Sequence record: PZ347775.1 | Direction: 5' to 3' (one strand) | Length of the DNA stretch: 64,000 bases | Source of the DNA: a phage | In this document: positions 25,794-45,616 of the stretch, one piece after another | Numbering within the stretch: position 1 is the first letter of the stretch | Layout of the letters: the number at the start of each line of letters is the position of its first letter | Notes under the pieces: generated by a model | Told to the model about the DNA's origin: nothing | Databases searched by the model: none | What the model saw: only the letters and a program-made list of their open reading frames with translations | Made by a program: the position numbers and the translations under genes

Positions 25794-26807
25794 TCATTTA
25801 TAATAACTTCGGTGGTTTTCAAGATAAACCCTCTCAAGGAAGTCATCCCAGAAACCCATGTCTACTTTTTGCTGCATACCGTTCTTAGAAGCTTCAATGG
25901 ATGCTGCTTCTACTTGATCGACCACATCTTCCAAAAACTCTTGAACAGTTTTAAATGGATGCTTACCCAACTTCACGTCGAGAATAAACGGAGCATCTTG
26001 GAGTGGATAAACCAAGTCACCAGTTTTGTAAATTTCCAATAGTTGGAGTCCACCACGACAAGCATGGCTCAAAGCTTTCCAGTCAATGCCCTCATTCGCT
26101 TCAGCTTTACGAGCGCGTTCACCGTATTCGGCATCAAGTTTATTCAAAGACTGCTTAAGCTCAATAAGAGAAAGTGTTGTCTGATATTTACGACCCAACA
26201 CGGTATAGAACGTTTGAGGGCCTGTTTTCTCATGATTATGGAATACCCATTCGCAGAATTCGTTCTCTGGAAGACGATGCTTAATATCTTCAACTTTAGT
26301 GCGACGTTGCTTAATAGAACCATCTTCTTGGTAATCAACCCACTGGTCAGGGATTTGATTAACTACTTTCAATACATCACGTAATGCGGCCAAACGAGAA
26401 CCCTTAACACCATATTTAGAAGCTTGCTTGCGAACATATCCTAAATAGGATTTCATGTTAGTTGTATAAAACCGTGAACGATTGTCTTGAATAAACTTCC
26501 ATACATCAGGCAAATCAGATTTAACTACCAGTTCAGGTGGAGTGTGGAGCATATCCAATGCTACGGTTTCACCATCTGCTGCTAATTTAAAGAAATACTT
26601 AAGACTGTATAGTTCATGGTCAATATCATTTTTAGTGTTTTTAGATGATGTGTTGTTAGTGTTTTTACTCATATGCTCTTTAACATTTCCGATAAGAATA
26701 TCGCGAGCAGGAGGAACAAAGATTTCTTTAAAATCTACATCAGATTCTGGTGTAGAAGTTCCATAAAGATGACTACCAAAATAGCTTTTCATTACTGTTT
26801 TCATCAT
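25794..26807 (-). CDS. putative nucleotidyltransferase (Pol-beta superfamily fold)
   Basis: N-terminal YFGSHLYGTSTPESDVDF (GS-x9-DxD) plus downstream TVALDML third acidic residue; ~200 aa helical C-terminal region. Confidence 0.55.
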   Translation of the reverse strand: MMKTVMKSYFGSHLYGTSTPESDVDFKEIFVPPARDILIGNVKEHMSKNTNNTSSKNTKNDIDHELYSLKYFFKLAADGETVALDMLHTPPELVVKSDLPDVWKFIQDNRSRFYTTNMKSYLGYVRKQASKYGVKGSRLAALRDVLKVVNQIPDQWVDYQEDGSIKQRRTKVEDIKHRLPENEFCEWVFHNHEKTGPQTFYTVLGRKYQTTLSLIELKQSLNKLDAEYGERARKAEANEGIDWKALSHACRGGLQLLEIYKTGDLVYPLQDAPFILDVKLGKHPFKTVQEFLEDVVDQVEAASIEASKNGMQQKVDMGFWDDFLERVYLENHRSYYK

Positions 26808-40904: not shown

Positions 40905-41378
40905 TTATTTGATTTGTTTAGCAGACCAAATGCGGTCTTTAATAATTTTTTGGATGTCTTCAACATACTCAAGAGAGTGAACATGTGGATTATCTTTGAA
41001 ACTATAGGCACGGGCTAACTTTTGGCCTTCGGTTTTGATTACTAAAAGCTCTTTAAGGATAGCTTCATACTTAGCGATAATTCCTTTAACAATATTTTTT
41101 TCTTGTGTAGCTTTAGGATCTGCTTTAGGAGCAGGTTTACCCGAAGCCTTTGCAAAAGCAGCACCAGTAGCAACTAAACTTTTCCAGGCCATACTAACCG
41201 CATTTCCCGTAAATCCTTCGGCTTTCATATCACGAGCAAATTGGAATCGTGATTCATCGGAAGCATCTTTATAGGAATATTTACCCGCGGCAATGGCAGC
41301 TTTTGCAACAGCTTGAATTTCAGTGCTAGATGCTTCATTTAACACCGCTTCATTTAAAAATTGAGCATATGATTTCAT
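40905..41378 (-). CDS. internal-protein-like capsid-targeted protein (CTS-like MKSYAQFLNEA)
   Basis: 157 aa, Ala/Lys-rich, CTS-like N-terminus; flanked by two near-identical hairpins. Confidence 0.55.
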   Translation of the reverse strand: MKSYAQFLNEAVLNEASSTEIQAVAKAAIAAGKYSYKDASDESRFQFARDMKAEGFTGNAVSMAWKSLVATGAAFAKASGKPAPKADPKATQEKNIVKGIIAKYEAILKELLVIKTEGQKLARAYSFKDNPHVHSLEYVEDIQKIIKDRIWSAKQIK

Positions 41379-41429
41379 CTTATTTCCTGTTTTAATTCGT
41401 GGTTTTAATATACTTATTTATACTAAAAA

Positions 41430-41451
41430 GCCCCAACCTTTCGGTCGGGGC
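41430..41451 (-). terminator. hairpin plus U-run terminator (repeat copy B)
   Basis: Near-identical to copy A (two transitions). Confidence 0.5.
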
Positions 41452-41459
41452 TAAGCCTT

Positions 41460-41760
41460 GCGGCAACCTTGTCGGGGTTCCACCTGCTAAGGCAAGTGTT
41501 TGTACGAAACGCCGGGATTCGAACCCGGTTATTAAGCAGTTGACGCTACTTAATATTTTTAAAAGGCCATATCTCGACCATATCCGAACGTTCCGTCAAA
41601 AACGCTACTCGGCTTACGGCAAAGATATTTCCTCGAATCGATAATTCTGTGCGCCGTTTCTGCTGTGATGTAAGGGGATATTAATAAATCATAAAGATTT
41701 ATTAAGACCAGTCCTTACACAGGGAACATCAGTCCGACGACTTACCGGTAGCGACCCGGT
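41460..41760 (-). ncRNA. candidate stable RNA region with tRNA-like T-arm (possible counterpart of T4 species 1/2 RNAs); boundaries uncertain
   Basis: No ORF of 60 aa or more; contains ccgggttcgaatcccgg (perfect T-stem-loop consensus on minus strand) and further hairpins; T4 has small stable RNAs in its tRNA region. Confidence 0.3.
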
Positions 41761-41763
41761 TTC

Positions 41764-42114
41764 TTAATATTCTTTTAAAGCATCAATCTGTTCACGACGT
41801 TTACGCCATAAATCAATTGCTTCATACGCAGATTCAGCATTTCGAATTGGACGGCATTTATATAAAGACTCGTGATTTTGATATTGCGTAGATAACGTAA
41901 TTTTATCTAAAAGGTCTTTACGTTCAAAGTATTCGTAACCATCTAAGCCAAATGAACGATTTTTGAGAAATTGCCAATGACCATATTCGTTTTCGACATA
42001 AACATAATCCGCGTGTTGATAAAGCAAATTAATTACACGTTCAGAAATAACAGTGTCATTGTGATTAAAATAAAATGTTAAATCATGAACTACTAAATAA
42101 ACATTACCTTTCAT
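41764..42114 (-). CDS. hypothetical protein
   Basis: 116 aa ORF immediately downstream of the tRNA cluster. Confidence 0.45.
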   Translation of the reverse strand: MKGNVYLVVHDLTFYFNHNDTVISERVINLLYQHADYVYVENEYGHWQFLKNRSFGLDGYEYFERKDLLDKITLSTQYQNHESLYKCRPIRNAESAYEAIDLWRKRREQIDALKEY

Positions 42115-42130: not shown

Positions 42131-42206
42131 TGGTCGAGGCAGTAGGGATCGAACCTACGACCTAGGACTTAGAAGGTCCTTGCTCTTCCTTCTGAGCTAT
42201 GCCCCG
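42131..42206 (-). tRNA. tRNA-Arg (anticodon UCU)
   Basis: Hand-folded cloverleaf on minus strand: acceptor CGGGGCA/TGCCTCG, anticodon loop CTTCTAA, T-loop GGTTCGATCC, encoded CCA. Confidence 0.8.
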
Positions 42207-42210
42207 TAAT

Positions 42211-42286
42211 TGGGGTGACCGATGGGAGTCGAACCCATGACTACGAGAATCACAATCTCGAGTTCTACCAACTGAACTACGGCCAC
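42211..42286 (-). tRNA. tRNA-His (anticodon GUG), no encoded G-1
   Basis: Acceptor GTGGCCG/CGGTCAC, anticodon loop TTGTGAT, discriminator C, CCA; resembles E. coli tRNA-His. Confidence 0.7.
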
Positions 42287-42400
42287 ATTAATACCTACTC
42301 CAACAATCAAGATGTCTTCACACGAAATTAAGAGAAGAGTGATCAGTTCAACCCCGATAATCGCGTCAAGTAGATATTAATGTGACAGTTGTCACAAATT

Positions 42401-42475
42401 TGGCGGACGTGATAGGATTCGAACCTATAACCAATCGCTTAACAGGCGATCGCTCTGCCATTGAGCTACACATCC
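42401..42475 (-). tRNA. tRNA-Asn (anticodon GUU)
   Basis: Acceptor GGATGTG/CACGTCC, anticodon loop CTGTTAA, T-loop GGTTCGAATCC, CCA. Confidence 0.75.
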
Positions 42476-42479
42476 AAAT

Positions 42480-42566
42480 TGGTGGGGAGTGATGGAGTCG
42501 AACCACCCGAGTCGCAATGACAATGGATTTACAGTCCACACCGCTACCTCTACGGGATAACTCCCC
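42480..42566 (-). tRNA. tRNA-Tyr (anticodon GUA), class II with long variable arm
   Basis: Acceptor GGGGAGT/ACTCCCC, anticodon loop CTGTAAA, long variable arm TGTCATTGCGACTCG, CCA. Confidence 0.75.
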
Positions 42567-42579
42567 TTAATTCTTAATT

Positions 42580-42654
42580 TGGTGGCCCTGGGTGGAATTG
42601 AACCACCATCTGGCGATTATGAGTCGCTTGCTTGAACCTTCCAGCTACAGGGCC
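42580..42654 (-). tRNA. tRNA with anticodon CAU (Met, or Ile if C34 is modified as reported for T4 tRNA-Ile)
   Basis: Acceptor GGCCCTG/CAGGGCC, anticodon loop CTCATAA, T-loop GGTTCAATTCC, CCA. Confidence 0.7.
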
Positions 42655-42655
42655 T

Positions 42656-42732
42656 TGGTGCTGATTGACGGAATCGAACCGCCGACCTTCTCATTACAAG
42701 TGAGTTGCTCTACCTACTGAGCTAAATCAGCA
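42656..42732 (-). tRNA. tRNA-Thr (anticodon UGU)
   Basis: Acceptor TGCTGAT/ATCAGCA, anticodon loop CTTGTAA, T-loop GGTTCGATTCC, CCA. Confidence 0.8.
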
Positions 42733-42736
42733 AAAC

Positions 42737-42826
42737 TGGCGGAGGCGATAGGATTTGAACCTATGAGTCGCCGGAGCGACTGCCGGTTTTCAAGACCGGT
42801 GCATTAAACCACTCTGCCACGCCTCC
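42737..42826 (-). tRNA. tRNA-Ser (anticodon UGA), class II
   Basis: Acceptor GGAGGCG/CGCCTCC, anticodon stem CCGGT/ACCGG with loop CTTGAAA, long variable arm, CCA. Confidence 0.8.
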
Positions 42827-42828
42827 AG

Positions 42829-42902
42829 TCTCCATACAAGGATTTGAACCTTGGACCTCCTGATCCCAAATCAGGCGCTCTACCAAACTGAGCTACACGG
42901 AG
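42829..42902 (-). tRNA. tRNA-Pro (anticodon UGG), CCA not encoded
   Basis: Acceptor CTCCGTG/TATGGAG, anticodon loop TTTGGGA, T-loop GGTTCAAATCC; 3' end is A-CU not CCA. Confidence 0.75.
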
Positions 42903-42912
42903 TAAATTAAAT

Positions 42913-42986
<74 letters not shown>

Positions 42987-42991
42987 AAATT

Positions 42992-43078
42992 TGGTGCGAG
43001 AAGTGGGACTCGAACCCACAAGGAAATCATTCCGCAGCATTTTAAGTGCTGTGCCTTTACCAATTTGACCATTCTCGC
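42992..43078 (-). tRNA. tRNA-Leu (anticodon UAA), class II
   Basis: Acceptor GCGAGAA/TTCTCGC, anticodon stem CAGCA/TGCTG with loop CTTAAAA, long variable arm, CCA. Confidence 0.8.
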
Positions 43079-43079
43079 G

Positions 43080-43152
43080 CTGGGAATAAAGGACTCGAAC
43101 CTTTGCATCCTGGAATCAAAATCCAGTGCCTTACCAACTTGGCTAATTCCCA
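43080..43152 (-). tRNA. tRNA-Gln (anticodon UUG), CCA not encoded
   Basis: Acceptor TGGGAAT/ATTCCCA, anticodon loop TTTTGAT, T-loop GGTTCGAGTCC; first gene of the cluster. Confidence 0.8.

Positions 43153-44919: not shown

Positions 44920-45616
<697 letters not shown>

Follow-up and report, generated by a model that had tools for sequence, protein, structure and literature searches.

A phage tRNA-His that keeps the bacterial acceptor end and C73 but encodes no G-1

In tRNA-His, the guanosine at position -1 is regarded as the main identity element, and as a nearly universal one. The G-1:C73 pair of bacteria, aided by U-2 and G-1, shifts RNase P cleavage from the -1/+1 to the -2/-1 bond (PMC5499578, PMC3064791), and loss of G-1 cuts the kcat/Km of E. 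coli HisRS more than 100-fold (PMC3064791, PMC5499578). C73 and the anticodon also belong to the bacterial His identity elements (PMC9976931). The known exceptions, which comprise some Alphaproteobacteria, a few protists and nematode mitochondria, always have an altered HisRS or an altered discriminator. Histidylation can nevertheless proceed without the residue: C. elegans mt-tRNAHis is charged although it lacks position -1 (PMC9976931), and yeast is viable without G-1 when the tRNA and HisRS are overexpressed, according to work cited in PMC3064791. Among phages, T5 is listed as encoding a His-accepting tRNA in a table of PMC4810235. The T5 tRNA-His has U at -1 and C73, and the RNA that abuts it is annotated in GenBank as "RNA III, stable RNA with unknown functions".

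The sequence analysed here (the window) is a stretch of 64,000 nucleotides of phage DNA, which belongs to a Tequatrovirus, a T4-like coliphage. In the tRNA region it shares 98.8% identity with Escherichia phage ECO07P3 and matches hundreds of Tequatrovirus genomes, and the rest of the window carries T4 core genes recognized by Pfam (clamp and clamp loader, alpha-glucosyltransferase, NrdD, thymidine kinase, lysozyme, dNMP kinase, gp53 and Acb1). The ORF of Acb1, an anti-CBASS phosphodiesterase, lies at 44920-45375 on the minus strand (PF23474, E = 2.6e-60); its T4 homologue is 57B, still labelled 'RNA ligase' in the T4 RefSeq record. Where the window has Met…Arg, T4 has Ile-segB-Arg, and T4 contains neither tRNA-His nor the spacer between tRNA-Asn and tRNA-His. 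Relative to T4, the additional tRNAs include those for Tyr, Asn and His, which make up three of the four with a GUN anticodon (42401-42566 and 42211-42286, minus strand). The CAU-anticodon tRNA of the window is called as Met and could be a lysidine-type Ile. The Asn-His spacer measures 114 nt, and tRNA-Arg begins 4 nt past the CCA of tRNA-His. The features of the region are as follows.

42131-43152, minus strand: cluster of 11 tRNA genes in the order Gln, Leu, Gly, Pro, Ser, Thr, Met, Tyr, Asn, (leader), His, Arg (ARAGORN, Rfam)
42211-42286, minus strand: tRNA-His(GUG), with G1 at 42286, the anticodon at 42253-42251, C73 at 42214 and the encoded CCA at 42213-42211
42287, minus strand: position -1, occupied by U in place of the G-1 of bacterial tRNA-His genes; final base of leader helix P1
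42287-42381, minus strand: predicted structured leader RNA of about 95 nt, closed by P1 and containing P2 (MFE and consensus folds)
42368-42381, minus strand: 5' strand of P1 (AUUAAUAUCUACUU), pairing with 42300-42287
42287-42300, minus strand: 3' strand of P1 (GAGUAGGUAUUAAU), ending at U-1
42303-42315, minus strand: hairpin P2, which covaries
42382-42395, minus strand: small hairpin GUGACAACUGUCAC, just 5' of P1
41429-41452, minus strand: terminator-like hairpin with a T-run, downstream of the rnaC/rnaD homologues

The hairpin and T-run at 41429-41452 mark the probable end of the tRNA operon. The minus-strand stretch 41420-41764 is 93% identical to the T4 region of rnaC and rnaD (species 1 and 2 stable RNA), and a 116-aa ORF at 41764-42114 (phrog_3355) lies between it and tRNA-Arg. 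We considered the flanking ORFs (41764-42114, 40905-41378 and others) as possible tRNA-His factors; they displayed no Pfam domain and matched only PHROGs of unknown function.

The gene at 42211-42286 is a genuine tRNA-His of the bacterial type and, judged by its conservation, a functional one. ARAGORN calls a tRNA-His (gtg) on the minus strand with ends exactly at 42211-42286, and the Rfam model RF00005 matches 42214-42286 with 65.1 bits (E = 6.9e-12, gathering score 29). Read along the coding strand, the gene is GUGGCCG-UA-GUUC-AGUUGGUA-GAAC-U-CGAGA-UUGUGAU-UCUCG-UAGUC-AUGGG-UUCGACU-CCCAU-CGGUCAC-C-CCA, with the acceptor stem GUGGCCG/CGGUCAC and canonical D- and T-loops. ARAGORN, Rfam and direct reading thereby agree with the earlier note on this DNA, which had described a cloverleaf with a GUG anticodon and C73. 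A non-His isotype is not borne out: the only feature of E. coli genomes matched by the phage sequence is tRNA-His, with 80.3% identity in 5426 of 5426 genomes, which supports the His assignment. The gapless alignment with E. coli hisR has 61 identical positions out of 76, and G1-C5, C70-C73 and CCA are common to the two genes. We discarded an 8/4 acceptor/T structure of the kind seen in alphaproteobacterial phage tRNA-His (PMC5389517), where the eighth pair would be U8·U65. As a gene it is no novelty, with annotations in hundreds of genomes.

In E. coli hisR, G1 is preceded by T(-2) G(-1), and the 5' acceptor strand runs G1 U2 G3 G4 C5 U6 A7. In the window, position 42287 reads T, as the earlier note had it, and the bases encountered from G1 in the 5' direction are T (42287), A, A, T and T, the closest upstream G being at -8. 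U-1 is unable to pair with C73, and the genome encodes no G-1 that could do so and extend the acceptor stem to 8 bp. No other register or fold gives a G at -1; taking G42286 itself as G-1 would leave 1 nt between the acceptor and D stems and a 3' tail of 4 nt. The argument that a lost G-1 implies either an unusual identity or an unusual formation of the 5' end stands for a tRNA-His of bacterial type. A mini-ORF overlapping the junction (ATG-TGG-CCG-TAG, 42288-42277, with GGAG 9 nt upstream) was rejected as a chance occurrence, with -2 being A in only 9 of 16 relatives.

The T at -1 is a trait of the lineage and no local accident. It is present in every relative examined, namely in eight Straboviridae genera, rV5-like phages, the mycobacteriophage genus Bixzunavirus and phage T5. 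The comparison covers 12 GenBank phages, all with T at -1: Straboviridae of the genera Tequatro-, Gelderland-, Jiaoda-, Winkler-, Gualtar-, Chryson- and Schizotequatrovirus and an unclassified 261-kb strabovirus, together with Mydovirus and Certrevirus (Vequintavirinae) and Bixzunavirus. T likewise precedes G1 in nine T4-like loci of IMG/VR. The hosts of the relatives range over Enterobacteria, Aeromonas and Mycobacterium. Counted over distinct leaders, the relatives have T at -1 of tRNA-His in 16 of 16 cases, against 53% for the other tRNAs of the same loci, in which G occupies the position in 2%. If the cases were independent, the chance of 16 T out of 16 would be 0.53^16 = 4e-5, and the invariance of U-1 exceeds what a simple RNase P preference would require.

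The cloverleaf itself is maintained under mutation. Across 18 distinct sequences of the family, 98.9% of the cloverleaf cells are paired, and compensatory double changes occur in 13 of the 21 cloverleaf pairs, in all four stems, far above shuffled and slid controls. This covariation rules out a pseudogene. The pairs G1:C72, U2:A71 and G3:C70, the anticodon and C73 (18/18) are invariant, a pattern that looks like selection on the parts touched by HisRS. The gene is kept in hundreds of phage genomes (634 records).

We compared the phage genes with their cellular counterparts by searching IMG/VR, and one genome for each of 185,579 bacterial and archaeal species, with a 24-nt pattern that represents the 5' half of the family. 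T lies directly ahead of G1 in all 15 IMG/VR matches. The cellular matches are 33 tRNA-His genes from Glycomyces, Clostridia, Phycisphaerales and others, and every one of them (33/33) has T(-2) G(-1) before G1. The difference in the frequency of T directly before G1, 15 of 15 against 0 of 33, has a Fisher p of 9e-13, uncorrected for phylogeny. The phage form therefore equals the cellular form minus G-1, and U-1 of the phages is the counterpart of U-2 in the cellular genes, which lies immediately 5' of the RNase P cut, on its leader side. The trait is thus both clade-wide and phage-specific, which points beyond the single locus of the earlier note. Not all phage tRNA-His genes omit G-1: of 49 such genes from tRNA clusters, sampled in IMG/VR and unrelated to this family, 40 encode it, and the remaining nine have T (five), C (two) or A (two) in its place. 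These nine loci carry unrelated genes (T in L018, L041, L080, L094 and L113; C in L056 and L057; A in L090 and L114). The tRNA-His genes of L090 and L114 combine A at -1 with A73, again with no pair possible.

The Asn-His spacer (42287-42400, minus strand) folds, according to the predicted structures, as a conserved structured RNA. In the window, P1 is a helix of 14 bp (14-16 bp is the range given), and its final pair, A:U(-1), stands flush against G1. A set of 14 distinct sequences keeps P1 96.4% paired, with compensatory change in 6 of its 14 pairs. The centre of the leader is variable: the insert enclosed by P1 spans from a 4-nt loop to about 76 nt among the relatives, and the shortest spacer is a 31-nt hairpin. 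The GUCAC arm of the small hairpin (42382-42386) has an alternative pairing with G1-C5 of tRNA-His (42282-42286). This pairing lengthens P1 by 5 bp and, in the precursor's MFE fold, is in competition with the acceptor stem. The GUCAC motif occurs in 5 of 13 long-form leaders (the window, L121, L124, L126 and L132) and is missing where P1 begins right after the upstream tRNA. The leader may accumulate as a small RNA. We found no homology between the spacer and T4 rnaC/rnaD or Rfam families, and no sigma-70-like promoter within the spacer on the coding strand. A promoter that starts transcription at or near G1 was rejected in view of the missing sigma-70-like site and of the relatives in which the spacer is merely a 31-nt hairpin.

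The leader is not tied to the absence of G-1. Helix-closed leaders also precede phage tRNA-His genes with an encoded G-1, and in these the helix is followed by U-2 G-1. Such genes are found in another phage group (IMG/VR loci L001, L017, L036, L062 and L101), where the long closing helix UAUAAAAACAC…GUGUUUCUAUA ends at -3, followed by U-2 G-1; a similar helix motif stands ahead of tRNA-Met in L101. The idea that the leader hairpin is a His-specific substitute for G-1 is weakened further by the long spacers of other tRNAs, which are helix-closed as well, some of them ending at -2. Helix-closed spacers seem to be a general design of phage tRNA operons.

The explanation we favour, with about as much belief as doubt, is a canonical RNase P cut, after which an abundantly expressed tRNA-His is histidylated sub-optimally but to a sufficient extent. 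The tRNA would be co-transcribed with the ten other tRNAs of the cluster. With U-1 unpaired to C73, the host RNase P would not be diverted to the -2/-1 bond and would cut between U-1 and G1, separating the helix-closed leader RNA from a tRNA-His that has the usual acceptor stem of 7 bp and lacks position -1. E. coli HisRS should use such a product more than 100-fold less well. The host enzyme would then histidylate it with reduced efficiency through C73, the acceptor end and the GUG anticodon, and strong phage expression would offset the poor charging. The sequences demonstrate the gene and its structure, the missing G-1, the conservation of that lack over the clade, the difference between phages and cells and the selection acting on the cloverleaf; we infer the cleavage site, the level of charging and the way in which low efficiency is offset. 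Several observations run against this account. So widely conserved a tRNA should not be so poor a substrate of HisRS unless something compensates. C73 has been reported to act as a negative determinant when RNase P cleaves canonically (PMC5499578), and a mixture of cut sites may result. The GenBank annotation of T5, which includes U-1 in tRNA-His and ends RNA III at -2, implies a cut at -2/-1, and the invariance of U-1 goes beyond RNase P preference.

The T5 annotation and the invariance of U-1 are what would be expected if mature tRNA-His retained U-1, cut at -2/-1 by RNase P or at the base of P1 by RNase III, so that a 5' pU stands opposite C73. We regard this, the chief rival, as the less probable course, though one with a serious chance. 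The extra nucleotide would position the 5' phosphate read by HisRS, and charging would be reasonably efficient without a G. The constancy of U-1 in 16 leaders, against 53% T at other tRNAs, would be accounted for. The T5 GenBank records give tRNA-His as 78 nt starting from U-1 and a 106-nt stable RNA III ending at -2, whose 5' end is set such that a 2-nt 3' overhang of RNase III-like geometry results. If the T5 ends were mapped experimentally, mature T5 tRNA-His carries pU-1; the annotation has no experimental note and may merely copy the 8-bp convention. A helix of 14-16 bp, such as P1, is a short substrate for the E. coli RNase III. HisRS reads the 5' end mainly through backbone and phosphate, so that an extra U could restore much of the activity (PMC4357726, PMC9976931), and A. 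pernix HisRS takes A-1 and C-1 (PMC9976931). The shift of RNase P, on the other hand, needs both the G-1:C73 pair and U-2/G-1 (PMC5499578, PMC3064791), whereas U-1 and C73 cannot pair, and in the 33 cellular homologues the corresponding U occupies -2 and so falls to the leader side of the cut. As for the options of the earlier note, identity through other elements, or else through a retained U-1, is the best-supported direction, and the remodelling of the 5' end, which it had also raised, is disfavoured in the form of a Thg1-type addition.

Such post-transcriptional addition of G-1, by a Thg1-like 3'-5' nucleotidyltransferase with C73 as the template, would be very surprising. To our knowledge, E. 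coli has no Thg1, and Pfam detected no Thg1 domain in 40 ORFs of the window (64 kb of the genome of about 167 kb). The trait is, moreover, common to T5, rV5-like phages and mycobacteriophages, which share little gene content. A 337-aa ORF of the window (25794-26807, minus strand) contains an RlaP domain (PF10127, E = 1.1e-10), an RNA-repair-associated Pol-beta nucleotidyltransferase. RlaP-type enzymes add nucleotides at 3' and not at 5' ends, and the ORF is therefore an unlikely source of G-1. What speaks for a Thg1-like activity is the sporadic presence of homologues in some jumbo and Bacillus phages (PMC7824862, PMC6292376) and the capacity of bacterial Thg1-like proteins to put G opposite C73 (PMC3061083). 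Less improbable, yet still unlikely, is a tRNA for which efficient charging is not intended, serving as a decoy or replacement for host nucleases that target tRNA, or as an escape from a factor that reads G-1:C73. We know of no defence system that reads G-1, and uncharged tRNA tends to harm translation. The phage-specific loss of G-1 across unrelated families, in hosts from Enterobacteria to Mycobacterium, suggests a benefit, and the addition of Tyr, Asn and His to the T4 set draws three members from the four GUN-anticodon tRNAs. It is known that phages use tRNAs against defences that cleave tRNA (PMC11464382, PMC11555353, PMC10264068), and tRNA-His is among the minor cleavage products of AriB (bioRxiv 10.1101/2025.02.04.636281). 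Against such a role stand the invariant C73, anticodon and first three acceptor pairs, as if selected for recognition by HisRS, and the His-accepting T5 tRNA tabulated in PMC4810235. A decaying, non-functional copy, which the missing main identity element could suggest, has a negligible chance: the compensatory changes in all four stems with 98.9% pairing over 18 distinct sequences effectively refute it, as do the retention of the gene in 634 records, the canonical T- and D-loops and the tRNA score of 65 bits.

The phage-specific tRNA-His that has lost G-1 throughout the clade and retained C73 appears to be a variant that has so far gone unremarked. A full-text search, to which the older T5 and HisRS literature is external, returned no paper on coliphage or mycobacteriophage tRNA-His genes that have lost G-1. 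T4-like, T5-like, rV5-like and mycobacterial phages keep C73 together with the entire bacterial acceptor end and never encode G-1, whereas near-identical cellular genes always encode it. On a bolder reading, to which we attach a tentative and rather low probability, the phage lineage deliberately dropped G-1 and yet works with a G-1-dependent HisRS. Either a retained pU-1 or the conserved G4·U69 could then permit G-1-independent histidylation by the canonical enzyme, or the lack of G-1 could itself be selected, for example as an escape from, or a decoy of, a factor that reads the G-1:C73 end. If these tRNAs are charged well, the identity rules of E. coli are incomplete; if they are not, the purpose of such abundant phage tRNAs needs rethinking. 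The consequence can be tested directly in standard coliphage systems, and it has implications for how phage tRNA genes and their 5' ends are annotated and for designing orthogonal tRNA-His/HisRS pairs. The grouping of Tyr, Asn and His might reflect a shared threat, such as nucleases that target the GUN-anticodon family.

Among known systems, E. coli hisR has in common with the phage gene the GUG anticodon, C73, the G1-U2-G3-G4-C5 start, the encoded CCA and the 7/5 cloverleaf, and both meet the same host HisRS and RNase P. The phage gene differs in that hisR has U-2 G-1 and an 8-bp stem made by G-1:C73, while the phage U at that position prevents the extra pair, and in having G4·U69 in place of G4:C69. 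The absence of an encoded G-1 is a feature shared with the alphaproteobacterial delta-G-1 tRNA-His of the Caulobacter type and with phage (8/4) forms (PMC5389517, PMC3064791). The alphaproteobacterial type has A73 (or U73), U72 and a co-evolved G-1-independent HisRS, and is in some cases 8/4 (PMC3064791, PMC9976931). The window tRNA, unlike that type, has C73, G1:C72 and a 7/5 structure, and the hosts (E. coli, Klebsiella, Aeromonas and Mycobacterium) have the canonical G-1 system; neither A73 nor U72 (G1·U72) occurs in the family, where C73 and C72 are invariant. By its sequence, the window tRNA-His thus lacks the defining features of the alphaproteobacterial types as well as the encoded G-1:C73 pair that defines the bacterial one. 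Eukaryotic and some archaeal tRNA-His genes likewise have no G-1, and RNase P makes the canonical cut at +1, as predicted for the phage, but there Thg1 adds the residue, and no Thg1 was found among 40 ORFs of the window. C. elegans mt-tRNAHis and the yeast thg1 bypass also confront a G-1-preferring enzyme with a tRNA-His that has no -1 residue, and charging in vivo relies in these cases, as the sources have it, on a bigger role of the anticodon or on overexpression (PMC9976931, PMC3064791); unlike those organellar and laboratory cases, the phage trait is natural, conserved, virus-encoded and found in bacteria. The tRNA-His of T5 shares U-1, C73, the GUGGC acceptor start and the encoded CCA, and differs in its D-arm and in belonging to the Demerecviridae. 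T5 RNA III is likewise a helix-closed leader abutting tRNA-His, of 106 nt with a helix of about 12-15 bp and an end at -1/-2, and its likeness to the leader of the window lies in architecture and position alone, with no similarity detected between the leader sequences.
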